From Dehalococcoidia bacterium (GTDB taxonomy: Bacteria; Chloroflexota; Dehalococcoidia; DSTF01; WHTK01), in the NCBI GenBank assembly GCA_965247485.1, contig OZ252017.1, positions 366,478 through 430,477 of the forward strand: a DNA stretch of 64,000 nucleotides, given 5' to 3'. Under the pieces are notes generated by a model. It saw nothing but the letters and a program-made list of their open reading frames with translations. It made no database searches and was not told the origin of the DNA. Shown piece by piece: positions 1-12,501 of the stretch (position 1 is the first letter of the stretch; each line of letters starts with the position of its first letter). The position numbers were made by a program, and so were the translations under genes.

Positions 1-37
1 CAATAAGATTTAGCAATGGGCTGGCAAAGCGGTTCAT
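1..37 (-). CDS. 5' end of a gene running off the left edge (MNRFASPLLNLI...)
   Basis: Minus-strand AAAGGAGAAGAT followed by ATG at 37, frame open to the window edge. Confidence 0.6.
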   Translation of the reverse strand, partial: MNRFASPLLNLI

Positions 38-207
38 ATCTTCTCCTTTACGAACGAACCAGTCACAGGGCAGGGAATACCCCTGAGTCAAAGGGGATAA
101 TACTCCAGCAGAGCCGCGAAGAAAACGCCCCGCAGCATCTTCAAGCGGAAAACGGCACCATGCTAGAATGCGCTCACTAAATCGAATCGAAACCTTGAGG
201 TGTTGCT

Positions 208-1083
208 CTGCTCCAAGTTCGTAAGGCGGTGATTCTCGCTGCCGGCTACGGCACCCGCTTGCTCCCGCTCACCAAGGCTCAGCCCAAGGAGATGCTGCCT
301 CTTGTCGACCGGCCAATTATTCATTACGCCGTTGAAGAGGCCGTTCTGGCCGGAATTGACCAGATCATTATCGTGACCGCAGTCGGTAAACGCGCCGTTG
401 AAGATTACTTTGACCGCTCGCGTGACATTGAGGACCTTTTGGAGCAAAAAGGCGACCTGGAGCGGCTGGCAGAGGTGAAAGCTGTCTCCCAGATGGCCAA
501 CTTCGCCTACGTTCGCCAGGGCGAAGCCAAAGGCATCGGCGACGCGGTGCTTACCGCGCGGCACCTTGTCGGTGATGAACCGTTCGTTTTGATCCTGCCG
601 GACGACGTTATGATCTGTGATCCTCCGGCCACTAAACAGCTGATCGACACTTTCGAGGAACACCACGGCAGTGTCGTTGCGGTCGAGGAGGTGCCAGAGA
701 CGGAGATTTCCAGCTACGGCATCGTCGATGGCAAGCGAGTTGCAGATCGCGTTATCGCGCTGGAGAGCCTGGTTGAAAAGCCGCCGCTTGGGACAGTTCC
801 AAGCCGTCTTGGCATCGTTGGCCGCTATCTGCTGACCCCAGCCATATTCGAGGCGATCGCGCGGACCGCTCCCGGCGCCGCGGGCGAGATCCAGATCACT
901 GATGCTATGCAAATACTCGCCAACGAGGATGGCATGTATGCGTATCAATTCACTGGCCAACGATTTGACACTGGACGGCCCCTGCTGCTGCTCATTGCCT
1001 CGATTGCCATGGGTCTCAACCGCCCAGACATCGGACCAGCGCTGCGCGAACACCTGCGCGGCCTTGATTTGAACCAAGACTAG
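208..1083 (+). CDS. galU: UTP--glucose-1-phosphate uridylyltransferase
   Basis: VRKAVILAAGYGTRLLPLTKAQPKEMLP and VEKP motifs. The conserved VRKA lies upstream of GTG 229, so the start is probably CTG 208 behind GAGGTG. Confidence 0.9.
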   Translation: MLQVRKAVILAAGYGTRLLPLTKAQPKEMLPLVDRPIIHYAVEEAVLAGIDQIIIVTAVGKRAVEDYFDRSRDIEDLLEQKGDLERLAEVKAVSQMANFAYVRQGEAKGIGDAVLTARHLVGDEPFVLILPDDVMICDPPATKQLIDTFEEHHGSVVAVEEVPETEISSYGIVDGKRVADRVIALESLVEKPPLGTVPSRLGIVGRYLLTPAIFEAIARTAPGAAGEIQITDAMQILANEDGMYAYQFTGQRFDTGRPLLLLIASIAMGLNRPDIGPALREHLRGLDLNQD

Positions 1084-2456
1084 TGCGGATTCTCTCACTC
1101 GGCTATGGGCTGCCGGACAGCCAAATTGACAACCACAATTGGGCTAACGCACCCGCCTTTTTCGATTATGACGCCATGGTCGTGGATCCGGCTCAAGCGG
1201 TTTCGGGGCTGATAACGGAGCTCACACAGACTGGCGAGACCTACGTAACCTACACCGACGAACCCGTCTTGGATGGACCGACGACCGATTCGTCCGTTGG
1301 CCTCGCAGACCTCCTTCGGCAGCGTCGCGGTGAGACCGAGCGCATGCTCGCCAAGGGCGGTCTGATCATCTGCTTCACCTATCCGGACGTTCCGCACCCA
1401 AAGGTGACGGGTTTTACCGGCTGCCACCGCTATTACTGGCTGCCGGCGCCGCTTGACTGCGACTACGGACCTGACTTCGTCCGACCGGCGACAGGCAAGC
1501 ATGTTTCCAGCAGCGATTATGAAAACCCTTTCGCGGACTTCCTCGATCTGATGCGCGACAACGTTTTGTACCGGGCATTTCTGACAGAAGGCGCCGCCGG
1601 TTTTGGTGAGTCTCTGAGGGTGATTGGTCGCAGCCCTGGAGGCGCGGCAATTGCCACCGAGCTTTCGGTCGGCGGCGGCCGAGTAGTCTTTCTGCCGGCG
1701 CTACCACCCAACCTCTCTCACTCGGAACGCAGCAAAGCCGCCGGAAAGTTGGTCAGCGCCGTCCGCAACGCCCTACTCCTGGAGGCAGATGACGAGCCGC
1801 CGGAATGGCTCGCCCATCACCTTCTACCTGAACTCACCGATGCAAAAGAGCGTGCGGATACGGCGGAGACGCGGCTTGACGAAATCGAACTAGAGATGAC
1901 GGAGGCCCGAAACGCCTATCGCGGCATTGACCGCTACCGGCGTTTGCTCTGGCAAGAAGGCAAATTTGGCCTCGATCTGCCAGTGCGTGATGTCCTGGGG
2001 ATGCTTGGCTTTAAAAACATGGCCAAAGTGGATGACCCACCAAGTTTTAATTTTGATGGTGAGAGCGTCTTCGTAGAAATCGAAGGCAGCAGCGGCAGCA
2101 TCGGAATGAACCCGCATTACCGCCTCCGGCAGCGTCTAGAGCAGCGCATCGCTGAGACAGGCAAGCGTACTAGGGGGCTAATCGTCGTCAATGGCCAGCG
2201 TGAGCTAAACCCTTCCGAGCGGTCCGAGGCGATTGACGATTCCCTCCGGGTTGCCGCCGAGAGCATGCGCTACTGCATCGTAGACAGCACCCATCTCTTC
2301 GACGCGTTGCGAGACCATATGGAGGGCAAGGGCGACACCAAGGGGTTCTGCCGCGAACTTCTCGCGACGGAGGGCGTATTCAAGCCGATGGCTCCGGCGG
2401 AGAACCCAAGCTCGGAAGAGACCAACGAACCTGGAGAGGAAACAAATGACAGCTGA
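1083..2456 (+). CDS. Hypothetical protein with central coiled coil and C-terminal restriction-endonuclease-like region
   Basis: 457-aa ORF overlapping the galU stop (TAGTG); ends with D...VEIEG...GLIVVNGQR pattern. Confidence 0.7.
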   Translation: MRILSLGYGLPDSQIDNHNWANAPAFFDYDAMVVDPAQAVSGLITELTQTGETYVTYTDEPVLDGPTTDSSVGLADLLRQRRGETERMLAKGGLIICFTYPDVPHPKVTGFTGCHRYYWLPAPLDCDYGPDFVRPATGKHVSSSDYENPFADFLDLMRDNVLYRAFLTEGAAGFGESLRVIGRSPGGAAIATELSVGGGRVVFLPALPPNLSHSERSKAAGKLVSAVRNALLLEADDEPPEWLAHHLLPELTDAKERADTAETRLDEIELEMTEARNAYRGIDRYRRLLWQEGKFGLDLPVRDVLGMLGFKNMAKVDDPPSFNFDGESVFVEIEGSSGSIGMNPHYRLRQRLEQRIAETGKRTRGLIVVNGQRELNPSERSEAIDDSLRVAAESMRYCIVDSTHLFDALRDHMEGKGDTKGFCRELLATEGVFKPMAPAENPSSEETNEPGEETNDS

Positions 2457-3264
2457 CAGCGGCGAGCCCAAAGCGTCAGATCAGGGCTGGGCGCTAATTC
2501 TCGGCGCCTCCAGCGGCTTCGGCGGCGCTACCGCTGTCGAGTTGGCCCGCAACGGTCTGGATATCTTTGGTGTGCACTTGGACATGCGGTCAACGTTGCC
2601 GAACGCGGAGGCCGTAATAAGCGTAATCGAGAAGGAAGGGCGCCAGGCTGTCTTCTTCAATGTCAACGCCGCGGACGCGGACAAGCGATCCGGCGTGATC
2701 GACGCAATTACTGAAAAAATCCAGGCCACGGACTCACACATCCGTGTTCTCATGCACTCGCTGGCTTTTGGTGCGCTAAAGCCGGTGATAGCCGCTGACC
2801 CCAAGGATTCCTTAAACCAGCGCCAAATGGAGATGACCATAGACGTCATGGCAAATAGTTTGATCTACTGGGCGCAGGATGTTGCGACCCGCGGACTTTT
2901 CCGCCGAGGCAGTCGAATTTTCGCCATGACCAGTTCCGGTTCAACGCGGGTCCTTCGTAGCTACGGAGCAATTTCGGCCGCCAAGACCGCGCTTGAATCG
3001 CATATCCGCCAGCTTGCCTTCGAGCTGGCACCGAGTGGCGTCGCTGCCAACTCTGTTCGCGCTGGCGTAACCGACACGCCCGCTTTGCGACGAATCCCCG
3101 GGTCTCCGGAACTACTGGACCGTGCCGCCAACTTCAACCCGAGCGGACGCGGCACTACCCCGGACGACGTGGCACAGGCTATCTCAGCTCTGATCGACAA
3201 ACGGCTTTACTGGATGACTGGCAACGTTCTTGGCGTCGATGGCGGCGAGGATATTACCAGCTAG
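2446..3264 (+). CDS. SDR oxidoreductase, enoyl-ACP reductase (FabL/FabI-like)
   Basis: GASSGFG Rossmann motif, Y-x6-K (YGAISAAK), GVTDTPAL. Confidence 0.8.
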   Translation: MTADSGEPKASDQGWALILGASSGFGGATAVELARNGLDIFGVHLDMRSTLPNAEAVISVIEKEGRQAVFFNVNAADADKRSGVIDAITEKIQATDSHIRVLMHSLAFGALKPVIAADPKDSLNQRQMEMTIDVMANSLIYWAQDVATRGLFRRGSRIFAMTSSGSTRVLRSYGAISAAKTALESHIRQLAFELAPSGVAANSVRAGVTDTPALRRIPGSPELLDRAANFNPSGRGTTPDDVAQAISALIDKRLYWMTGNVLGVDGGEDITS

Positions 3265-3350
3265 CCACTCGGCCAAAACTAGAAAACAAGCTCCTAGCCC
3301 TGACGCTCCTGGAAGGCGCTTAAGGCCGCGAAGCGTCATACTAATGCCCT

Positions 3351-5255
3351 ATGGGCGCAGCCTGGGCTTACCTGCGATGGTTCGGGGCGTACTGGCTTTC
3401 GCGATCCGGTTTGATGGTAGGACGCTTGCTCCCCGCTCGGCTGCTTTACGGCATCGCCGACCCATTTGCCTTGATCGCCTACTTCCTTCTCGGACGCCAC
3501 CGGCGAAATCTGATCAAGAATTTGCGGCCGGTGGTCGGAGAGCAAGACGCCGCGGCCACTGCCCGGCGCGTCTTTCGCAACTTTGCTCGCTACATTATCG
3601 ATTTCTACCAATTGCCGGCACACGGTAAGCAAGCTTTACGCAGACGTGTTGATTTTCATAATTGGCGCGAGCTGGACCAGGCCCTCGAAGCGGATAGGGG
3701 CACGATTTTTGTCACCCTGCATTTGGGCCAGGCCGAACTTGGCGCCGGCGCCCTATCAGCCTATGGCCACCCGATCAGCGTCATCGCAGAAACGTTTGAC
3801 TACGGCCCGATGAACAGATTCCTCCAGGACCTCAGGCGATCCTTGGGAATGAAAATCATCCCTGCCGGTTCGGCCAAACCTGGTGTACTGCGCTGCCTCA
3901 ACCGCGGTGAGGCGCTCGGCTTGATGTTTGATGCCGTCGAACCAAGCGAAGGAATAACCGTAGATTTCCTCGGCCAGCCGGCTGAATTTTCTGCGACACC
4001 AGCACGTATCGCCGTCCGAACCGGTGCCAAAATCATGCCAGGCGTCGTTTCCCGTCAGGATTCAGACGACACCCGGTTTCTCACCGAAATAGATTTCGAT
4101 CTGGAATTTGAGCCGACCGGCGACGAAAATGCAGATGTTCATTCCTTGACTCAAGCGATTGCCAATTCTTTGGAGCCGATGGTGCGGCAACATCCAGACC
4201 AATGGTTCGCCTTCCACCCGGTTTGGCAGCAGCCATCGGAGCCAAAAGCCACAACCGCGGCCTGGATGCAATGGTCATTGACGCTGGCGACGTGGGCTGG
4301 CGGGGTTCTGCCGCGTAGGGCAGCGTATGCCCTGGCGGGAGTCGCGGGGGATCTGGCGTTTTTGGCTCGCGCATCGGCCCGCGCCAATGTCCAGGACAAC
4401 ATGCGCCACGTCCTCGGCAACTCCGCGTCTGACAGCAAGGTTTCCCGAGCCACGCGAGAGGTTTTCCGCAGCGTTACGCGCTATTACGTCGATCTTGTTC
4501 GACTGCCTCATTCAACCGCCGCGGAGTTGCTAAATCACGAGATCAAGATTCACGGCCTGGAGCAGCTCACCGAGCCAACATCTCGAGGTCAAGGAGTGGT
4601 AGTCGCGGCGGCCCACTACGGCAGCCCCGAAATGGGCGCTCAGGCGGGAGCGCTGCTGGGACTCGACGTGCTAGTGATGGCAGAACCGCTCCAGCCACCA
4701 GCGTTCGCCAAGGCTATGCACCATATGCGCACGGTCCACGGAGCGCGCTACGAAAATGTCAGTTTCAGCGGGATGGCCGGTGCCTTGCGTCACCTGAGAG
4801 CGGGAGGAGTTCTCGCGATGACCTGCGACCGAGATATTCAGAAAACCGGCTCTCCTCTGACCTTCTTCGGCGAAACGGCTCGGATGCCACTCGGCGCCGT
4901 CGAACTCGCCGCTCGCACTGGCGCCGTCCTTGTGCCCGGCTATAGCCACCGTTCTGGCAACAGAATTGATGTCTTCTTCGATCAGCCACTTGAACTGGTA
5001 AACACGGGTCGCCCGAAAGAGGACGCCTTAGTCAACGGCGCGGCGACGCTCGCCCGCATTGAGCCTTGGATCAAAAAGGACCCAGGTCAGTGGATGATCC
5101 TCGAGCGAATCTGGAAACCGATGAGCAAGAATTCCAAGAAAGCAATCGCTGAGTACCCAGATCCGACTCAAATAAACTCGGGATCGGTGGCCAACGCTTC
5201 CGAAGACGGCCTTCACGAGCGCGACCGGCCCGCGTCAACTGCCGTTATACAATGA
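3351..5255 (+). CDS. Tandem two-domain lysophospholipid/PIM acyltransferase (PatA/LpxL family)
   Basis: Two repeats, each with H-x4-E (HLGQAE, HYGSPE), FFG/FLG and PxQW...W termini. Confidence 0.85.
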   Translation: MGAAWAYLRWFGAYWLSRSGLMVGRLLPARLLYGIADPFALIAYFLLGRHRRNLIKNLRPVVGEQDAAATARRVFRNFARYIIDFYQLPAHGKQALRRRVDFHNWRELDQALEADRGTIFVTLHLGQAELGAGALSAYGHPISVIAETFDYGPMNRFLQDLRRSLGMKIIPAGSAKPGVLRCLNRGEALGLMFDAVEPSEGITVDFLGQPAEFSATPARIAVRTGAKIMPGVVSRQDSDDTRFLTEIDFDLEFEPTGDENADVHSLTQAIANSLEPMVRQHPDQWFAFHPVWQQPSEPKATTAAWMQWSLTLATWAGGVLPRRAAYALAGVAGDLAFLARASARANVQDNMRHVLGNSASDSKVSRATREVFRSVTRYYVDLVRLPHSTAAELLNHEIKIHGLEQLTEPTSRGQGVVVAAAHYGSPEMGAQAGALLGLDVLVMAEPLQPPAFAKAMHHMRTVHGARYENVSFSGMAGALRHLRAGGVLAMTCDRDIQKTGSPLTFFGETARMPLGAVELAARTGAVLVPGYSHRSGNRIDVFFDQPLELVNTGRPKEDALVNGAATLARIEPWIKKDPGQWMILERIWKPMSKNSKKAIAEYPDPTQINSGSVANASEDGLHERDRPASTAVIQ

Positions 5256-6016
5256 CCGCTCCTGACATGGGAAAAGCAGACCTCCACATCCACACAAATG
5301 AAGGGGATGGCCTTGATTCCATCGAGGCCATCCTGGAGCATGTCGATGCCAAAACCGACCTCGACCTGATCGCCATCACCGAGCATGACAATCTGGAAGT
5401 CTCCTTGCGCGCTCGCGAACTCTGGGCTCGGCGACACTACGATTTCGATTTCGTGGCTGGATGCGAAGTGACCACCTTGGAAGGTCATCTAATTGCCCTT
5501 TTCCTTGAGAAGCCCGTCCCCAGCCTGCGCCGAGTAGAGGAGACCTTGGAGGCTGTGCACGGCCAGGGCGGCGTCTGCTTTATTCCCCACCCCGCAAACT
5601 GGCTGACTCGCAGCATCGGTCCTGGCACTCTGCAGCGGGTCAAGAACCAGAATCGAGACGACGTTTGGTTCGACGGGATTGAGACTGCGAACGCCGGACC
5701 AGCTTCCCGGATTTACCTCCAAAAGGCCAAGCGGTTGAGCCATGAATACGGCCTCGCCGGGGTTGGGTCATCAGACGCCCATTTCCGGCAAGCGATTGGT
5801 AGCGCCTACACCGAGTTCGGCGGCTCTACCGCCCAGGATTTGAAGCAAGCTTTCGAGCACGGACGAATCCGCGCGAAGCAGCGCGATTACCCGCGCCTCC
5901 GAGATCTCGGCCTCGGCCGCAGTCTGACTCTGCCGATCGCGGGTCTGCGCGCCACACCGCGAGCCCTGGGCTGGCGCCGCACAGCCTGGAGCTTTGTCGG
6001 CAGGTACATCGGGTGA
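5252..6016 (+). CDS. PHP-domain phosphoesterase
   Basis: DLHIHT, ITEHD, PHP and GSSDAH motifs; ATGA overlap with upstream gene. Confidence 0.88.
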   Translation: MTAPDMGKADLHIHTNEGDGLDSIEAILEHVDAKTDLDLIAITEHDNLEVSLRARELWARRHYDFDFVAGCEVTTLEGHLIALFLEKPVPSLRRVEETLEAVHGQGGVCFIPHPANWLTRSIGPGTLQRVKNQNRDDVWFDGIETANAGPASRIYLQKAKRLSHEYGLAGVGSSDAHFRQAIGSAYTEFGGSTAQDLKQAFEHGRIRAKQRDYPRLRDLGLGRSLTLPIAGLRATPRALGWRRTAWSFVGRYIG

Positions 6017-7170
6017 AGATTGCCCTGGTATCGCCTTACGATCTCGCCGTTCCTGGCGGAGTCAACTCGCACATCAACCATCTAGCAGAAAACTTCAAAC
6101 TCCTCGGTCACGAAGTCCGGACGATCTTCCCGTCCTCTGACGTCAGCAATCTAAAACGCGACACAATCGTAATTGGCCGCCCCTCATCGATTCCGGCGGG
6201 GGGGTCCATCGCCCGAATGTCCCTCTCGCCGCGGCTGGCGAGACCGGTCAAGCGGGTTCTGGCAGAAGAAGCCTTCGACGTCGTACATGTCCACGAACCG
6301 CTGGTTTCGTTTATGCCACTTCAGTTTTTGCGTTTCTCCAATGCCGTCAACGTCGGAACCTTCCACGCTGCCCGCGAAAGTGGCGCCCATCTTTACACCT
6401 ACACCCGCAGACTCCTTACGGAGGCCTTTCGCCGGCTAGACGGAAAAATCGCCGTTTCCCAGGCGGCAGCCAGCCTAATCGAGCCGCACTTCCACGGCTA
6501 CTACAACATCATCCCAAACGGGGTAGATACCAAGCACTTTTCCGCTGTCCACGAACCTTTGCCGGACTTGGACGACGGCATGATCAACATCCTTTTTGTC
6601 GGGCGCCCAGAGAAACGCAAGGGACTCAGATATCTGCTGCGCGCCTTTGCCAAGATCAAAGCGGCCCAGCCGAAAACCCGGTTGGTCATCGTTGGCGGCT
6701 ACGACGCCCGTCAGAAGCGCGCTTACGAACGTTGGGTTGGCGAGTCAAACCTCAGTGATGTTGAGTTCATCGGCTTCGCTCCGGATGGCGAACTACCTCG
6801 CTACCATCGCTCAGCCCACATCTTTTGTGCACCCAACACCGGTAACGAAAGCCAAGGGATTATCCTTTTGGAAGCAATGGCTGCCGGATTGCCGGTGGTC
6901 GCTAGCAACCTCGGCGGTTTCGCCGAGGTCATCACCCACGGCGTCGATGGGTTGCTGGTACGACCAAAGGACAGTGATGCATTGACCGATTCACTGATCG
7001 AACTGGTGAAATATCCTGAACTGAGAAGAGAGCTTGGTGCTAAAGGCAAGGAGAGCGCCGAGCACTACAGTTGGGAGCGAGTCTCTCAACGAGTTCTTTC
7101 CTACTATGAGCGTCTCGCCTATGAAAAGAATTCCAGCCCAGACAGCACAATAATGGCTAAGGAGGCGTAG
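6013..7170 (+). CDS. GT4 glycosyltransferase, PimA-like (phosphatidylinositol glycosyltransferase)
   Basis: SPYDLAVPGGVNSHI, HVHEP, KRKG and ESQGIILLEAMAAG match PimA signature segments. Confidence 0.85.
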   Translation: MKIALVSPYDLAVPGGVNSHINHLAENFKLLGHEVRTIFPSSDVSNLKRDTIVIGRPSSIPAGGSIARMSLSPRLARPVKRVLAEEAFDVVHVHEPLVSFMPLQFLRFSNAVNVGTFHAARESGAHLYTYTRRLLTEAFRRLDGKIAVSQAAASLIEPHFHGYYNIIPNGVDTKHFSAVHEPLPDLDDGMINILFVGRPEKRKGLRYLLRAFAKIKAAQPKTRLVIVGGYDARQKRAYERWVGESNLSDVEFIGFAPDGELPRYHRSAHIFCAPNTGNESQGIILLEAMAAGLPVVASNLGGFAEVITHGVDGLLVRPKDSDALTDSLIELVKYPELRRELGAKGKESAEHYSWERVSQRVLSYYERLAYEKNSSPDSTIMAKEA

Positions 7171-7770
7171 GTGTTTTCCTTACCTCGCGCTCTACCCACC
7201 CAGGTGACCAGTCCAGTCGTCGCGGTTCTGGCACGCCTCGGCGTCACGCCAAACCAACTCACGCTGACACAATTTGGCGGAGGATTCATCGCCGCCGGTC
7301 TGATCGGCGCCGGGGAGTTGTTCTGGGGAGGCATCGCCCTGCTAGCCGCCGCCTCGCTGGACGCGTTTGACGGCACCTTGGCGCGCACCACCGGAAAAGT
7401 CACAAAATTTGGCGGCATTCTCGATTCTACGGTTGACCGGCTCTTCGAGGGCGCGGTGCTCGGTGGCGTGCTCTACTATTTCCTGGATTTGGGGGCCAAG
7501 GAAGAGAGCCTTTTAGCTTTCGTGACAATGGTCGGCTCGTTTGGTGTGAGCTACGTTCGGGCCCGCGCCGAGGTAGAAGGAGTCAACATTTACGACGGCT
7601 TCTTCACGCGTGCCGTGCGCATTCTTTTGCTCTCTGCCGGGCTCATGGTGGCGCAGCTCGGAATCGTCCTTTGGATTCTTGCCGTCATGACGCTGATCAC
7701 CACGGCGCAGAGATTGTATGTTGTCCGGCTTCGACTGAGGCCATCCGAAGAAGAGGGCTCGAATCAATGA
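7171..7770 (+). CDS. CDP-alcohol phosphatidyltransferase, phosphatidylinositol-phosphate synthase type
   Basis: DAFDGTLAR-x8-G-x3-D-x3-D motif, TPNQLT, SYVRARAE. Confidence 0.85.
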   Translation: MFSLPRALPTQVTSPVVAVLARLGVTPNQLTLTQFGGGFIAAGLIGAGELFWGGIALLAAASLDAFDGTLARTTGKVTKFGGILDSTVDRLFEGAVLGGVLYYFLDLGAKEESLLAFVTMVGSFGVSYVRARAEVEGVNIYDGFFTRAVRILLLSAGLMVAQLGIVLWILAVMTLITTAQRLYVVRLRLRPSEEEGSNQ

Positions 7771-8540
7771 TTGATCCAATGGACCAAGAGGCTCTGCGCG
7801 CGAAATTTTCCAAGGACCTCACGAGTCGAGTCCGGCTCGACCTATTCACTCAAGAGCCGACCAAGGTGTTCCTACCCGGCCAAGTGGAATGTCCCTTTTG
7901 CGAAGATGCCAAAACCTTGCTCGAGGAGATCGCCTCCCTTAGCGAACGAATCGTCTTGAGCGTGCACGAATTCGGCGACTCAAAAAAACTTGCCGAAGAT
8001 CTCAGAGTCGACCATATTCCCGCCATCGTAATTCGTGGCAAAAACAACCGGCCACTACGGTTCCTTGGTCTGCCAACGGGAGCCCAATTCACTGGCTTTG
8101 TTGAAACGCTGGTCGATGCGTCTCGCGGTGTTGGAAAACTCAGACCAGAAACCACGCGTGAACTCCGCAAGGTGAAAAACGATGTCGACCTCAAGATTCT
8201 CGTAGCCCCGAGTTGCACTCACTCGCCACCCCTGGTCCGCACTGCCTTCAACATTGGGCTGCAAAAAGCCGGGGTCAAGGTGACGGTCATAGAGGCCAGT
8301 GAATTCCCGGACCTAGTCCAACGTTATGTCCTCAGCGCGGTGCCAACAACAGTGATTAATGAAGCCGTGGCAATACGCGGCGCGATGGATAAGGAAACTC
8401 TGATTGAGGTCATCCAGAGGACAGTAGAGGGCAAGCCAATAGAAAACGACGTTAAGACGGGACCATTTACTCCACTGGCAGCGCCAAGAGCGAAATCAGC
8501 GCCCAAACCGCAATCTCACGGCCTGATAATTCCCCGCTAG
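7767..8540 (+). CDS. Two-thioredoxin-fold protein disulfide oxidoreductase (AhpF N-terminal/PDO-like)
   Basis: CPFC and CTHS motifs, AVP cis-Pro motif; ATGA overlap gives the start at 7767. Confidence 0.8.
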   Translation: MIDPMDQEALRAKFSKDLTSRVRLDLFTQEPTKVFLPGQVECPFCEDAKTLLEEIASLSERIVLSVHEFGDSKKLAEDLRVDHIPAIVIRGKNNRPLRFLGLPTGAQFTGFVETLVDASRGVGKLRPETTRELRKVKNDVDLKILVAPSCTHSPPLVRTAFNIGLQKAGVKVTVIEASEFPDLVQRYVLSAVPTTVINEAVAIRGAMDKETLIEVIQRTVEGKPIENDVKTGPFTPLAAPRAKSAPKPQSHGLIIPR

Positions 8541-8548
8541 AAACTCCA

Positions 8549-10051
8549 ATGAATCAGCTCACGCTCAGAACCGCGGTTAGGGAGAAAATTGCCCTCGCCG
8601 CCGAGACTGACTTCACCCGCGTTAGGCCCTTCATAGTCCTGGGCTTGCTGTTTTTAGTTTTGCGCGCGCCTTTCCTCAATTACGGTCACGGAACAGACCC
8701 AGACGCCTGGCGCGTGGCCCTGACTGCCCATCACTTGCTCGATACCGGCGAGTATTTCCCCTCGCGCCTGCCCGGCAACCCATTGCACGAACTTGTGATG
8801 ACCCCGCTGATCGCCGGCGGCTGGGTGTCAACAAACCTGGCTACAGCCTTGGTTGCGCTGCTGGGTGTCTTTCTTTTCGCCATGATAGCCAAGCACCATC
8901 AATTGCCGCATCAAGGATTGCTAACGTTTGGCTTTGCATTTACGCCACTGCTGTTTATTAACAGCATTTCGACCATGGACTACATGTGGACGCTAACCGC
9001 AATCCTGGCCTCGTATCATTCGGTGCTACGGCGGCAGCCGGTTTGGGCCGGACTTTTCCTGGGTATCGCCATCGGCTTCCGCCTGCAAAGCTTCTTATTC
9101 TTTCCCCCTCTGGCGCTGCTTCTATGGCGCCAGGACCTCGGCCGGAGCATTCTTCCGTTTGGCCTCGCAGCGGCCGGCGCGGCATTGCTGGCTTTTGCCC
9201 CAGTCCTCGCTGTATACGGGCTAGATTTCTACAACTTTTTCGATACATCCGTAGCTGCCGAAGATGTCCTGCGCCTGCTTGGCAAGGAAGCACTAGGGGT
9301 GTTCGGCGGCCTGGGAGTGCTGGCAGCGGCGTTAGTCTCACGCCGTCAGCTTGCGCAGCTACCGCGAGACCTTGGCAAGGACCCGTTAGCCGCCGTATGG
9401 GTCCTGATCATCCTCCTCTACTTCGTCTCCTTTTCCAGGCTGCCACATGAGATCGCTTATCTGATTCCGATTTTTCCCTTTGCCTACTTCCTCATGGCTC
9501 AGTATTTCACGCGCCTCGCTCTGACAGGCGCGATCGGCGCCATACTTCTAGCCGGCGTCGTCGATCTGACTACACCTTCAGATTCGCTCAGTCTGTCTTC
9601 TCTCAGCACGGCGAAGATTGGACGCGGTCTGGTCCTATCCAACGCGCAGACAATGACCAGTCAACGTGAGTTCGTCGAGGAAGTTGTCAGTGCTGACCTG
9701 CCGAACCATTCGATCGTAATGACCGGTTTTATCTTCCCCCAGCTCGCTGTTCGTGAGCGCGGTCGCCTTGCAACCCGAATCCTAGAACGTGACTACGCTG
9801 CGATAAGCATGCTTTCCGACCGTGGTGAGGCGGCCGCCGACCAACGCGATGTCCGCTACGTCTGGCTTCTGACCTATGACACCTTTGATGCGCTGAGAAG
9901 CCAGGGTTATGCGTTCTTCCTGGTGCCGGACGCCGCCGGCGGCACAGCAGCCCTTTACGATTACCGTCCAAGCCTATTCGGTGCTACGTTCTTGCGACTA
10001 GATCAACAGAGGCCATCGTCGGGCAAAGGTGCCGCCAGCACCGATCGCTAA
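8549..10051 (+). CDS. Polytopic membrane protein, GT-C-like glycosyltransferase
   Basis: Many TM segments, acidic first loop (GTDPD), SRLPG and GFR motifs. Confidence 0.55.
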   Translation: MNQLTLRTAVREKIALAAETDFTRVRPFIVLGLLFLVLRAPFLNYGHGTDPDAWRVALTAHHLLDTGEYFPSRLPGNPLHELVMTPLIAGGWVSTNLATALVALLGVFLFAMIAKHHQLPHQGLLTFGFAFTPLLFINSISTMDYMWTLTAILASYHSVLRRQPVWAGLFLGIAIGFRLQSFLFFPPLALLLWRQDLGRSILPFGLAAAGAALLAFAPVLAVYGLDFYNFFDTSVAAEDVLRLLGKEALGVFGGLGVLAAALVSRRQLAQLPRDLGKDPLAAVWVLIILLYFVSFSRLPHEIAYLIPIFPFAYFLMAQYFTRLALTGAIGAILLAGVVDLTTPSDSLSLSSLSTAKIGRGLVLSNAQTMTSQREFVEEVVSADLPNHSIVMTGFIFPQLAVRERGRLATRILERDYAAISMLSDRGEAAADQRDVRYVWLLTYDTFDALRSQGYAFFLVPDAAGGTAALYDYRPSLFGATFLRLDQQRPSSGKGAASTDR

Positions 10052-11403
10052 TTGCTAACGCGAACTCGACGGCGAATTATGAAGAAACCAGTAGCACCTG
10101 ACCCCAAGACCACGACTACCACCGCAACAACAAGAGGCAAAGAGGACGACCCTGTATCGCCTTTCTCAGGCTCGGCCGTTACCGCATCCGGTGTAGGCTC
10201 AGTATTCGCTGGCGTGACTCCAACCTCTGGTGGCCCTTGCCCAGAACCCAGCGGAACCAAAGTAGGAATTGGCTCGTCGGAGGTTTGGTTGCCGTCGCCG
10301 CTTACGATCACCTCGGGCAGTCCCACACTCAGGCGCCAGGCATTTTCGAGGCCGAGGCCGTCGAAGCCATAGACTTCAGCCAGCGCGCCATCAAGGTTGT
10401 TCAGACGGAGCGCCGCGACAAACTCAGCGAACCTCTGCTCACCAAATTCCTCAATCATGAAGCCAACGATGGCGCCCGACTGGCCGTAAAACAAAGAAAC
10501 CGTGCCCGCCGCTCCTTGAGCCGAACCTGTCAGACTGGTTATCGGTAAGACAGCGTCCCGCCGGATGGCGATGGCAAGAGCCGCCTCCTCATCGGGCAGC
10601 AACTCACGTTGCGCGTAGGTCGAGATGCCTTCATTTATCCAACCGGGAAAAGCAATGTGGTTTTGGGTCGCCTGACCAGTGACGATATGGGCCAACTCGT
10701 GACGAACGATGTTGAGGAAATCAACATCTCGGGAAACCAGTGCCGTGTCAGAAGCGCCAACCTCACCCAAGGTCCGAACACTTGAGTCCGGACCTCGGCC
10801 GCGCCGCGCGGCAACAGCTGGCTGAAGGTCATCAGCGGTGGTGTAGACCCAGATCTTTATCTCAAAATCAACGCTGGTATCGAGCAGTGCGCTCAGGCTG
10901 TCTACAGTTTCACGTGCAATGCGCAGGACCGTTCTGTGTGTATCCTCACTGCCAAAGTAGAAATAGACCGTCAGATTGCCGTCTGAAATCGACTCCCAGT
11001 CAAACCGATCATCGTCATAGGTTGCTGTCATCTCTTCGGTCGAGAGGGTATTGCCGTCCTCGTCCTCGAGTTCCCAGTGGTAGACCACCTTGCCTCCGGG
11101 AACCAGGTTGCTCAGGTTCGTGTTGCCAACGCTGGCTTGACAGTTCACTACAAGGCCTGACGTGCACTGTGCACGCACCGAAGCAGAGGGACGATCCGGC
11201 AGAACCTTGTAGCGCAGCCGCACCGAGGTTATTTGGGCATCGCTCGCCGCAAAAACTGTGAACAAAATGCCATCGGGAAAGCGATTGCTTGTCGACTGAT
11301 TGCGGATTTCAATGCCATCCGCCGCAACTAGGTCATGCGAGACCACGCTGAAGGCGACAAGGATCAGGGCAAGAGCCGCCGCGAAGGCGAGAGCACGCCT
11401 CAC
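10048..11403 (-). CDS. Secreted, C-terminally anchored peptidase MA family zinc metalloprotease
   Basis: Signal peptide, HELAH + WINEG motif, Pro/Thr linker, C-terminal TM followed by RRR. Confidence 0.8.
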   Translation of the reverse strand: MRRALAFAAALALILVAFSVVSHDLVAADGIEIRNQSTSNRFPDGILFTVFAASDAQITSVRLRYKVLPDRPSASVRAQCTSGLVVNCQASVGNTNLSNLVPGGKVVYHWELEDEDGNTLSTEEMTATYDDDRFDWESISDGNLTVYFYFGSEDTHRTVLRIARETVDSLSALLDTSVDFEIKIWVYTTADDLQPAVAARRGRGPDSSVRTLGEVGASDTALVSRDVDFLNIVRHELAHIVTGQATQNHIAFPGWINEGISTYAQRELLPDEEAALAIAIRRDAVLPITSLTGSAQGAAGTVSLFYGQSGAIVGFMIEEFGEQRFAEFVAALRLNNLDGALAEVYGFDGLGLENAWRLSVGLPEVIVSGDGNQTSDEPIPTLVPLGSGQGPPEVGVTPANTEPTPDAVTAEPEKGDTGSSSLPLVVAVVVVVLGSGATGFFIIRRRVRVSN

Positions 11404-12501
11404 GTGGCGGTTCCTATCGTCGACCGCAAGTAAGCCATCATCAAGCCGTCAAGATCGCCATCCAGGATGGCAGCCGCGTTCGAGGTCTCGAAGTCCGTGC
11501 GATGGTCCTTAACCATCTTGTAGGGATGCAAAACATAGCTGCGAATCTGGTTTCCCCATCCGGCTTCGACGTGCTCTCCCTTGAGTTTAGCTTGCTCCTC
11601 CTGACGTCGCACCAGCTCCTGCTCAAGAAGACGTGACTCGAGCACGCGCATCGCCAACTCCTTGTTGCGTCCTTGTGATCGCTCGTTCTGACAGGTGACG
11701 ACAATGCCCGTGGGAAGATGGGTAATCCGAATCGCCGTAGCCACCTTTTGTACGTTTTGTCCCCCGTGCCCCGATGAGTGGTAAATGTCGATGCGCAAGT
11801 CCTCTTGCTTTATTTCCACGTCTACTTCGGCGTCCGCCTCGGGCATCACCTCAACTAAGGCGAAAGAGGTGTGTCGGGCATGAGCAGCATCGAACGGTGA
11901 GAGACGGACCAGCCGATGCACGCCGCGTTCGCCCTTGAGGTAGCCGTATGCTGACTGACCCTGGATCTCAACCGTCACGCTCTTGACCCCCGCTTCCTCA
12001 CCAAGCGTCGAATCAATTACCTCCGCCTTGAAGCCACGGGCCTCACACCAGCGGACGTACATTCTTAGCAGCATCTCTGCCCAGTCCTGGGATTCCGTGC
12101 CGCCGGCACCAGCGTGGATTGCCAGTATCGCGGTGCGCGCATCATAAGGGCCACCAAACGCCAACTGATCTTCCAGCTTGTCCAGTTGCCTCTCCGCCGC
12201 GTCTGCATCGAGAGAGATTTGAGAAATTAACTCATCCTCGGCCTCGGCTTGAGCAAGCTCAAGGAGACCGATAGCTTCGTCCACGCGGTGCGCGATTCCA
12301 CGCCAAGTGGAAGTGGTTTCGTTTAACGATGCAAGGCGACGCATTGCAGTTTGGGCCGAGGATTGGTCATCCCAGAAACCGGCCTCTTGTGATTTGGACT
12401 CAAGCTTCTGTGCCTCAAGTTCTAAATTTGCGACGTCAAAGACGCACCATTGCGTCTGAGATTCGCGCCGCTAGCACTGGTAAGAGCTCACCTGGTTCCA
12501 C
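11400..12501 (-). CDS. prfB: Peptide chain release factor 2, with programmed +1 frameshift
   Basis: SPF and GGQ motifs. GTG 12501 reads 21 codons to CTT-TGA-C (12441-12435); the +1 frame continues DVANLELEAQ...GFWDD into the long ORF. Confidence 0.95.
12435..12450 (-). other. prfB +1 frameshift site (ATGGTG CGT CTT TGA C)
   Basis: Canonical CTTTGAC slippery/stop site with an SD-like element just upstream. Confidence 0.9.

Follow-up and report, generated by a model that had tools for sequence, protein, structure and literature searches.

Phosphatidylinositol mannosides (PIMs) and the genes that specify them are usually treated as an actinobacterial trait. The early PIM operon of mycobacteria and corynebacteria comprises pgsA1, which encodes phosphatidylinositol-phosphate (PIP) synthase (PIPS), together with patA and pimA; Escherichia coli makes no inositol lipids. 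Phosphatidylinositol (PI) has reportedly been found in cultured Chloroflexota, and diol-based phosphoinositol (acyl)mannosides are said to occur in Thermomicrobia. The subject of this analysis is a cluster of six genes on a 64,000-nucleotide stretch of contig OZ252017.1 (assembly GCA_965247485.1, hereafter ‘the window’) from an uncultured, soil-type Dehalococcoidia bacterium of the phylum Chloroflexota. The six genes probably form an operon for acylated glycosyl-PI, or PIM-like, membrane lipids, and to judge from their sequences the operon is best described as a local, embellished form of a PIM-like inositol glycolipid cassette that is phylum-wide.

Like the actinobacterial operon, the cluster holds co-oriented, clustered homologues of all three enzymes, and PI would be made via the inositol-phosphate route. 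Unlike it, the gene order is different, there are two paralogous acyltransferases (here fused) rather than one, and a PHP-family phosphoesterase, which is not a shared actinobacterial component, lies inside the cassette. Furthermore, the inositol-1-phosphate synthase MIPS belongs to the cassette in most Chloroflexota, and in the order to which the window belongs a PDO-like thioredoxin and a GT-C glycosyltransferase are attached to it. The second system for comparison is the inositol lipid cluster of Bacteroides thetaiotaomicron, BT_1522-BT_1526, which encodes MIPS, PIPS and a PgpA-like PIP phosphatase, BT_1525 (Heaver et al. 2022, PMC9246714). There too, the genes for MIPS, PIPS and a phosphatase lie together and PI is made in two steps via PIP; in the Chloroflexota cassette, however, the place of the PgpA-like phosphatase is taken by a PHP protein, of another family, and whereas the Bacteroides cluster serves inositol sphingolipids, the Chloroflexota cassette is predicted to go on to glycosylate and acylate PI. 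No gene-level description of the Chloroflexota cassette was found in the literature searched, which left subscription journals largely outside, and a prior mention is therefore possible.

The layout of the cluster, as set out in an earlier note made from the sequence of this DNA, was borne out by the list of open reading frames (ORFs) and by direct reading: the six co-oriented ORFs (Table 1) are joined, in order, by a 4-nucleotide ATGA overlap, a 4-nucleotide GTGA overlap, direct adjacency, a further 4-nucleotide ATGA overlap and an 8-nucleotide gap. Domain searches agree with the labels first given to the genes, namely a double acyltransferase, a PHP protein, a PimA-like GT4 glycosyltransferase, a PIP-synthase-type CDP-alcohol transferase, a PDO-like protein and a GT-C-like protein. 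For the PDO-like gene the longest ORF runs from 7671 to 8540, and it is the ATG at 7767, read in the sequence, that gives the ATGA overlap. Scans of positions 1-12500 for promoters and terminators returned counts at the level of shuffled sequence (1 promoter-like site against 3.7 expected, 15 terminator-like sites against 13.6) and so carry no information on the limits of the operon.

Table 1. Genes of the operon and its neighbours, with positions in the window; functions are predictions.
Feature	Position	Strand	Remarks
Fused tandem acyltransferase, two PatA/LpxL-type PF03279 domains	3351..5255	+	634 aa; N half ~3351-4250, C half ~4251-5255
PHP-family metal-dependent phosphoesterase, candidate PIP phosphatase	5252..6016	+	254 aa
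PimA-like GT4, putative PI hexosyl- (most likely mannosyl-) transferase	6013..7170	+	385 aa, GTG start; by homology
PIPS, CDP-alcohol phosphatidyltransferase predicted to use inositol-1-phosphate	7171..7770	+	199 aa; by homology
PDO-like double-thioredoxin protein	7767..8540	+	TIGR02187 match
GT-C fold membrane glycosyltransferase with C-terminal alpha/beta domain, order-specific family	8549..10051	+	500 aa; AF2 model
galU	229-1083	+	TIGR01099, 321.6 bits, just below cut-off of 326.8
457-aa protein	1083-2456		Same unit as galU; no Pfam or NCBIfam family
SDR/enoyl-reductase-like gene, best match FabL-like	2446-3264		Same unit as galU
MA-superfamily (MA-type) peptidase and prfB	10048-12344	-	Converge on the operon from downstream

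The distribution of this arrangement was followed in three sets of loci and one sample of genomes. The order set comprised 20 loci fetched around the GT-C gene from relatives of the order; the named set was the best 80 of 435 relatives found with a profile of the PHP protein, with counts made only where the contig left room; and the other-family set was made up of 20 loci around the best PHP matches of 18 genomes. The order and named sets overlap and are not independent, and at least three loci are identical in sequence. All related loci are metagenome-assembled, under record titles such as ‘Dehalococcoidia bacterium’ and ‘Chloroflexota bacterium’. The window’s own genome is 3.06 Mb long, in one contig and 93% complete, and the phylum sample consisted of 301 Chloroflexota genomes, in which a PimA-like gene was called at E <= 1e-60.

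The run PHP-GT4-PIPS-PDO-GT-C recurs in four of the five families of the order set, with the acyltransferases either fused or encoded by two adjacent genes; one family has PIPS-GT-C alone or GT-C alone. Among the named loci, the GT4 gene directly follows PHP in 76/77 cases, an acyltransferase precedes PHP in 60/73, PIPS follows GT4 in 61/70, a PDO-like gene lies between PIPS and GT-C in 52/65, and GT-C is found downstream in 31/53. That the same order recurs in the 20 order loci and the 80 named Chloroflexota loci indicates that the gene arrangement is not due to chance. Beyond the family of the window, 13 of the 20 other-family loci show two acyltransferase genes, PHP and GT4 with PIPS (the remaining seven are PHP paralogues without the cassette), and the full MIPS/acyltransferase/acyltransferase/PHP/PimA/PIPS cassette was found in 13 other families. 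Three small-genome Dehalococcoidia carry a minimal MIPS-GT4-PIPS triplet, with MIPS ending ~100 nucleotides before GT4, and one genome has the two acyltransferases, GT4 and PIPS with no PHP. In the phylum sample, 221/301 genomes possess a PimA-like gene, usually one per genome (216/296 without five genomes flagged as unpublished). The idea of a PIM-like operon outside Actinobacteria, which the earlier note put forward, stands on the homology to PimA, PatA and PIPS, and the wide occurrence of the PimA-like gene and of the cassette shows that the operon is not peculiar to this genome. Read from these sequences, the core (MIPS, PimA-like GT4, PIPS and usually two acyltransferases and PHP) appears to be an old cassette, widespread in Chloroflexota, from which in this genome MIPS seems to have departed, the acyltransferases to have fused, and which the PDO-like and GT-C genes seem to have joined.

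The GT4 protein has the two-domain GT-B architecture of its family, with PF13439 over residues 14-174 and PF00534 over residues 191-347. Against solved structures it matched PimA (PDB 4n9w and 2gej) at E 1.1e-55 over residues 1-368, 33 orders of magnitude ahead of the next-best GT4 enzymes (6kih, 1.2e-22; MshA, 1.2e-17; PimB', 1.6e-17), and a hand count of the alignment gives 131/368 identical columns, or ~36% identity, with Mycobacterium smegmatis PimA. Counterparts of the donor and catalytic residues of PimA (G16, H118, R198, R202, K203, E279, S280, G282 and E287) are invariant in 107/107 orthologues. In PimA, the pyrophosphate is contacted by Gly16, Arg196 and Lys202, the ribose by Glu282, and the mannose by Glu274 and the main chain that follows it (PMC9883506); the five named residues are all conserved in the window GT4 and, again, in 107/107 orthologues. 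Asp253 of PimA, which reads the guanine, is present in the window protein as D258 and is found in only 24/107 orthologues, with the proviso that the local alignment there may shift. This position had been considered as a test of mannose against glucose, and was rejected as uninformative since it varies among orthologues.

The hexose that GT4 would add is most likely mannose, the better guess from the sequence, with glucose possible. The earlier note had favoured glucose on the grounds that galU sits upstream, such that GT4 would draw UDP-glucose from its neighbour and yield glucosyl-PI rather than mannosyl-PI. To be sure, galU lies on the same strand 2.3 kb upstream, and the variability at the counterpart of Asp253 means that GDP specificity is not fixed by sequence. 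However, two genes stand between galU and the operon, and an 86-nucleotide gap parts the galU unit from it; the unit (galU, the 457-aa gene and the SDR gene) was found upstream in only 6/80 named loci (L042, L043, L045, L050, L054 and L055), all six of them among the 14 closest matches (62-74% PHP identity); and in kin such as L050 and L055 MIPS intervenes between the unit and the operon acyltransferase. In addition, the window GT4 retains the Asp together with every PimA contact to mannose, ribose and pyrophosphate, and the genome carries a ManC-like nucleotidyltransferase, a phosphomutase (PMM) and a bifunctional PGI/PMI clustered together, which makes GDP-mannose synthesis plausible; against the mycobacterial model for mannose-1-phosphate guanylyltransferase the ManC-like protein reaches 279 bits, short of the cut-off. 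With linkage to galU confined to close kin, a GDP-mannose route at hand and the donor residues invariant, the proposal of glucose is unsupported, and glucosyl-PI as the product is improbable.

The fourth protein has PIPSynth (NF045883) as its best NCBIfam model, at 134.6 bits (cut-off 170), ahead of archaetidylinositol-phosphate synthase (123.8 bits), the BT_1523-type PIPS (89.7 bits) and pgsA (27.6 bits). Its best PDB match is mycobacterial PIPS (6h53, 6.5e-22), the alignment with which contains the full motif DxxDGxxAR(x8)G(x3)D(x3)D (DAFDGTLAR in the window protein), and PF01066 is matched at 59.9 bits. The genome has only two PF01066 genes, this one and a PssA-like one, and no PgsA-type gene was found in it. 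The start of the PssA-like CDP-alcohol transferase gene, outside the window, is overlapped by a gene for a 618-aa fusion of a sugar/alcohol-phosphate nucleotidyltransferase and a CobD/HisC-like, pyridoxal phosphate (PLP)-type enzyme (L038:2309-4803). This organism may have an unusual set of phospholipid head groups.

The supply of inositol phosphate was examined through MIPS. A search of the genome for ino1 and GDP-mannose genes, a check suggested beforehand in the earlier note, turned up both MIPS and the ManC-like/PMM/PMI cluster. There is one MIPS gene, of a long type, unlinked to the operon; among relatives of the order MIPS is present in 38/41. Linkage was scored with two queries, the short-type MIPS of locus L017 (PF01658, 124 bits) and the genome’s own long-type MIPS, counting matches on the same strand and <=6.5 kb upstream of the PimA-like gene, at loci with >=4.5 kb of room only. 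The short-type query was needed: tblastn with the long-type protein missed the short-type MIPS that adjoins the cassette in relatives. On this basis MIPS was found upstream of the PimA-like gene in 7/13 order loci, 39/59 named loci and 13/17 other-family loci (59/89 in total), and this membership of MIPS in the cassette is the strongest single result of the analysis. With GT4 placed between the enzyme that makes inositol phosphate and the one that attaches it to lipid, GT4 very likely works on an inositol lipid.

The two MIPS types were themselves seen in several combinations. Both occur in the order, and one genome (G004) has both. At two loci, an intact long-type MIPS gene heads the cassette and is immediately followed by a fragment resembling short-type MIPS (L095:7812-8167 and L098:7739-8006, 48-72% identity), as though one type had replaced the other in situ. 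The window genome’s own MIPS (L001:556-2079, outside the window) is a 507-aa ORF, the first ~80 residues of which fall outside the MIPS domains and give weak helix-turn-helix matches (E ~1e-3); its start codon may simply have been called too early.

A different acceptor for GT4 has to be weighed at this point. In the manner of MshA, GT4 might act on soluble inositol phosphate, after which the CDP-alcohol transferase would take glycosyl-inositol phosphate, or the product would be a soluble solute and not a lipid. The minimal cassette, with GT4 between MIPS and PIPS and no phosphatase, fits such a scheme, and MshA-type enzymes are among the weaker matches of GT4 (TIGR03449, 91.4 bits; PDB 7qsg and 3c48, ~1e-17). 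PimA, however, is by far the better match, and over the full length; Arg68 of PimA is kept and so are, in its membrane-binding helix, three out of four basic residues; and two lipid-type acyltransferases travel with GT4. A soluble acceptor is thus very improbable, and a lipid acceptor, PI, is retained in what follows.

Gene 1 contains PF03279 in two stretches (E 5.4e-69), and its best PDB match is PatA (5f2t), at 2.3e-17 for the whole protein, with the N half holding the best stretch, and at 1.3e-11 for the C half. On NCBIfam models, the N half scored 147.8 bits on NF006270 and 124.3 on the PIM acyltransferase model, and the C half 123.1 on the PIM acyltransferase model, its clear best (the next family reached 63.7), all of these values being below cut-offs; the whole protein reached 244 bits on NF005919 (cut-off 209), a pass that merely sums two domains. 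In the C half, HYGSPE aligns with HSGNWD of PatA and CDRD with AERD; in the N half, HLGQAE and FDAV were read in the translation and placed against PatA by eye. The catalytic pair of PatA is His126/Glu200, and the Glu is Asp in both halves. These halves are the only PF03279 domains in the genome. A role in lipid A synthesis was considered for them and rejected: LpxC was not found in the genome, 93% complete as it is, and there is no other PF03279 gene.

In most relatives the two acyltransferase domains are encoded by separate, ordered paralogous genes. Once three duplicate loci had been removed, a maximum-likelihood tree was built for 21 genomes with 42 domains or genes; one branch (support 96/88) parted the upstream from the PHP-adjacent copies, 21 against 21, and 0/500 label shuffles gave as clean a split. 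The duplication is therefore not recent: the two acyltransferases have held the same order from before the sampled classes split, and the fusion in this genome appears to be derived. Paralogy so ancient and so ordered argues for two different acylation steps, and we infer from these sequences that each PatA-like domain probably has its own target.

The PHP protein matches PF13263 (PHP_C) at 52.8 bits (cut-off 21.3) and PF02811 at 19.5, below the cut-off for the latter. Its predicted metal ligands H12 and H14 (HxH), E72, H79, H113, and D175 and H177 (DxH) are invariant in 15 orthologues. The AlphaFold2 (AF2) model has a pLDDT of 77, and the fold search matched PHP proteins at E 6e-11, the nearest solved structures being the uncharacterised PHP proteins 3e38 and 2anu and then RNase AM, which gave no lead on function beyond a PHP phosphoesterase; an atlas search returned just Chloroflexota clusters of hypothetical PHP_C proteins. 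The C-terminal tail is basic and aromatic-rich, with 11 Arg/Lys among the final 49 residues; the protein has no membrane segment, and a hydrophobic-moment scan did not single out the tail. Three PHP_C proteins are encoded in the genome.

That this protein removes the phosphate of PIP, giving PI, is a tentative assignment, to which we give somewhat less than an even chance. It rests on four considerations. Stand-alone PHP enzymes are commonly phosphomonoesterases; the pathway has just one phosphate ester to remove, that of PIP; the gene holds a fixed place in the cassette in at least 13 families; and no homologue of PgpA (PF04608), a family to which the PHP protein is unrelated, was found in the 93% complete genome. 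Among bacterial PIP phosphatases, only the PgpA-like protein of Bacteroides is reported to be backed by experiment (PMC9246714 and its bioRxiv version). A search of the Corynebacterium glutamicum control genome returned no PHP_C protein, so the PHP lead alone does not identify the mycobacterial PIP phosphatase.

Equally to be considered is that the PHP protein acts on another phosphoester, such as a nucleotide by-product or an intermediate of lipid turnover, and that PIP is dephosphorylated by an unlinked enzyme, an explanation that falls just short of an even chance. PHP is lacking from the minimal MIPS-GT4-PIPS cassettes and from the one locus with two acyltransferases, GT4 and PIPS; cassette-free PHP paralogues are common, as the seven of 20 other-family loci and the three PHP_C genes of the window genome attest; and the nearest solved structures are uncharacterised and the nearest characterised relative is a nuclease. 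These three points count also against the wider pathway proposed below, and the want of a membrane segment is a further one in favour of some other substrate. On the other side stand the constancy of the gene’s position, between the acyltransferases and the PimA-like GT4 in 13 other families and before GT4 in all but one of the named loci counted, the invariance of all the metal ligands, the failure to find a PgpA-family gene in the genome, and the phosphate of PIP itself, the one such ester that the pathway has to lose.

PHP and the acyltransferases tend to be present or missing together: among 17 cassettes of other families, 13 have both, three have neither and one has the acyltransferases only. 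The phosphate of PIP sits on the inositol position that bears the fourth acyl chain in Ac2PIM, and one may speculate that the loss of this phosphate makes the position accessible to one of the two acyltransferases.

The gene for the PDO-like protein is matched by TIGR02187 at 179.2 bits (cut-off 185), and the protein has one CPFC and one CTHS motif and no hydrophobic leader. In none of the 20 other-family loci did a PDO match adjoin the cassette.

The last gene is more difficult to place by sequence, giving sub-threshold matches only, to PIG-U and GT87 (PF09594, 8.7 bits against a cut-off of 25); nine of 120 listed homologues carry a precomputed PF09594 match. Its AF2 model (pLDDT 86.5, pTM 0.88) led Foldseek to GT-C enzymes in all leading matches (ArnT, 5ezm, 1.5e-4), and VIA-align gave Z-scores of 22.0 for Pmt4, 21.3 for ArnT, 20.9 for ALG12 and 16.4 for PimE, the range of Z 20-22 also including oligosaccharyltransferase (OST). 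The N-terminus is basic; D52 (and D50) lie in the first loop after helix 1; and D52, R55, R73, E81, H300 and E301 are invariant in 27 homologues, D50 nearly so. PimE, a GT87 enzyme that elongates PIMs with polyprenyl-phosphate-mannose, and ArnT, of GT83, are both lipid-directed GT-C enzymes. The window protein is like PimE (9dm5) and ArnT (5ezm) in its GT-C fold, the acidic residues in the first outer loop and a large membrane domain, and the linkage of its gene to PI synthesis genes is a further likeness to such lipid-directed enzymes. Unlike PimE, it has a C-terminal alpha/beta domain, and unlike both, its family is confined in the samples searched to one Dehalococcoidia order.

Within that order the gene is present in 40/41 genomes, as against 2/301 in the phylum sample (E <= 1e-25), both of the window’s genus, which marks it as an order-level addition. 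The earlier note had counted three components as added to the actinobacterial set; for GT-C this holds, PHP and the second acyltransferase are instead old and phylum-wide, and for the PDO-like gene no match adjoined the cassette in the other-family loci. In five cases (G005:C3, G006:C1, G012:C14, G014:C1 and G020:C1) the GT-C match was broken into two or three neighbouring segments in different frames, the cause being either frameshifts of the assembly or decay of the gene copy.

Whether the GT-C protein adds a further sugar outside the cell, from a polyprenyl-phosphate sugar, is on the evidence of fold and gene linkage an evenly balanced question; a PI-glycolipid acceptor is favoured by its staying with PIPS. 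Of what had first been claimed for this gene, the GT-C character is confirmed by the predicted fold (Z ~22), and the extension of the lipid outside the cytoplasm is plausible on fold and linkage only. The genome has two small GT2 genes that resemble polyprenyl-phosphate hexose synthases, both weak matches. Outside the window, L040:3422-4123 and L041:3125-4618 exceed the threshold of GT87 (PF09594) with 82 and 49 bits, and may be additional lipid- or glycan-directed GT-C enzymes.

Possible, if on the unlikely side, is that GT-C and the PDO-like protein stand outside the lipid pathway altogether, GT-C being a protein O-glycosyltransferase or another envelope glycosyltransferase, perhaps paired with the thioredoxin-like protein. 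Structurally it is indeed matched best by protein O-mannosyltransferases (Z 22.0 and 21.9), with ArnT level with them; in the genomes sampled the gene does not accompany the cassette outside this order, and even among the named loci it is missing downstream in 22/53 with room; moreover, PDO-like proteins are not known to have a link to lipid synthesis. Set against this, where the cassette has split, GT-C remains directly downstream of PIPS, with no PDO match between them (L025-L027), co-transcription is suggested by the shared orientation and the gap of just 8 nucleotides seen in the window, and GT-C enzymes directed to lipid head groups (ArnT, PimE) exist and were matched as well.

Taken together as acylated glycosyl-PI synthesis, the predicted route runs as follows. 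The unlinked MIPS, present in the genome, would make inositol-1-phosphate, which PIPS, by homology, would join to CDP-diacylglycerol to form PIP; the PHP phosphoesterase may then strip the inositol phosphate to leave PI, the tentative step discussed above. By its homology to PimA, GT4 would put a hexose on the inositol at the cytoplasmic face, most likely mannose from GDP-mannose, and the two PatA-like domains, again by homology, would attach one or two more acyl chains. At the outer face, with a likelihood near the midpoint, the order-specific GT-C might add sugar from a polyprenyl-phosphate sugar.

A fuller version can be envisaged, in which the route is complete to tetra-acylated glycosyl-PI: PHP would be a PIP 3-phosphatase that frees inositol O-3 for the second PatA paralogue, the other paralogue would acylate the sugar, and the new GT-C family would then extend the lipid outside the cell into a PI-anchored glycan. 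Such a route would account for the joint occurrence of PHP and the acyltransferases and for the lack of PHP in the minimal MIPS-GT4-PIPS triplet. PHP would in that event not be orthologous to the PgpA-like enzyme of Bacteroides, and two of the roles thus filled are not known to have an assigned protein in mycobacteria. As a whole it is rather unlikely.

Several observations weigh against the assignment of the operon to PIM-like lipids, in addition to those already given for PHP. The PIPS falls below its curated cut-off (134.6 against 170), and each acyltransferase half scores ~124 against the 209 of NF005919, with an LpxL-type model, not PatA, as the best NCBIfam match of the N half. In the window genome MIPS lies apart from the operon. 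Only a minority of orthologues have the guanine-reading Asp, so the nucleotide of the donor may not be GDP. As modelled, GT-C is structurally nearer to ArnT and the protein O-mannosyltransferases (Z 21-22) than to PimE (Z 16.4), and its GT87 score is far below threshold.

Upstream of the operon, the starts and stops of galU, the 457-aa gene and the SDR (short-chain dehydrogenase/reductase) gene overlap (229-3264), and the nearest atlas clusters to the 457-aa protein are hypothetical proteins of Chloroflexota, Bacillota and Actinomycetota. Downstream, the MA-type peptidase gene and prfB both adjoin the GT-C gene in 17/20 order loci (prfB in 19/20), and where they do so they are convergent on it in all but one (L033). 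The prfB ORF begins at position 29 of the PCRF profile, as expected if the usual programmed frameshift splits off the first codons.

On the sequence evidence, the core enzymes of the cassette appear to be new members of known families, and it is the conserved PHP, the paired acyltransferases and the order-specific GT-C that would set it apart. The same enzymatic core as that of PIM synthesis, physically tied to MIPS, runs through much of Chloroflexota, including lineages represented by metagenomes only, and the cassette would provide the genetic basis for the inositol lipids reportedly made by cultured Chloroflexota. The PHP family is a candidate for the PIP phosphatase step, for which an enzyme is reported, among bacteria, from Bacteroides only (PMC9246714). 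The conserved second acyltransferase may reveal how Ac2PIM-type lipids come by their additional acyl chain, and the order-specific GT-C may build a PI-anchored surface glycan.

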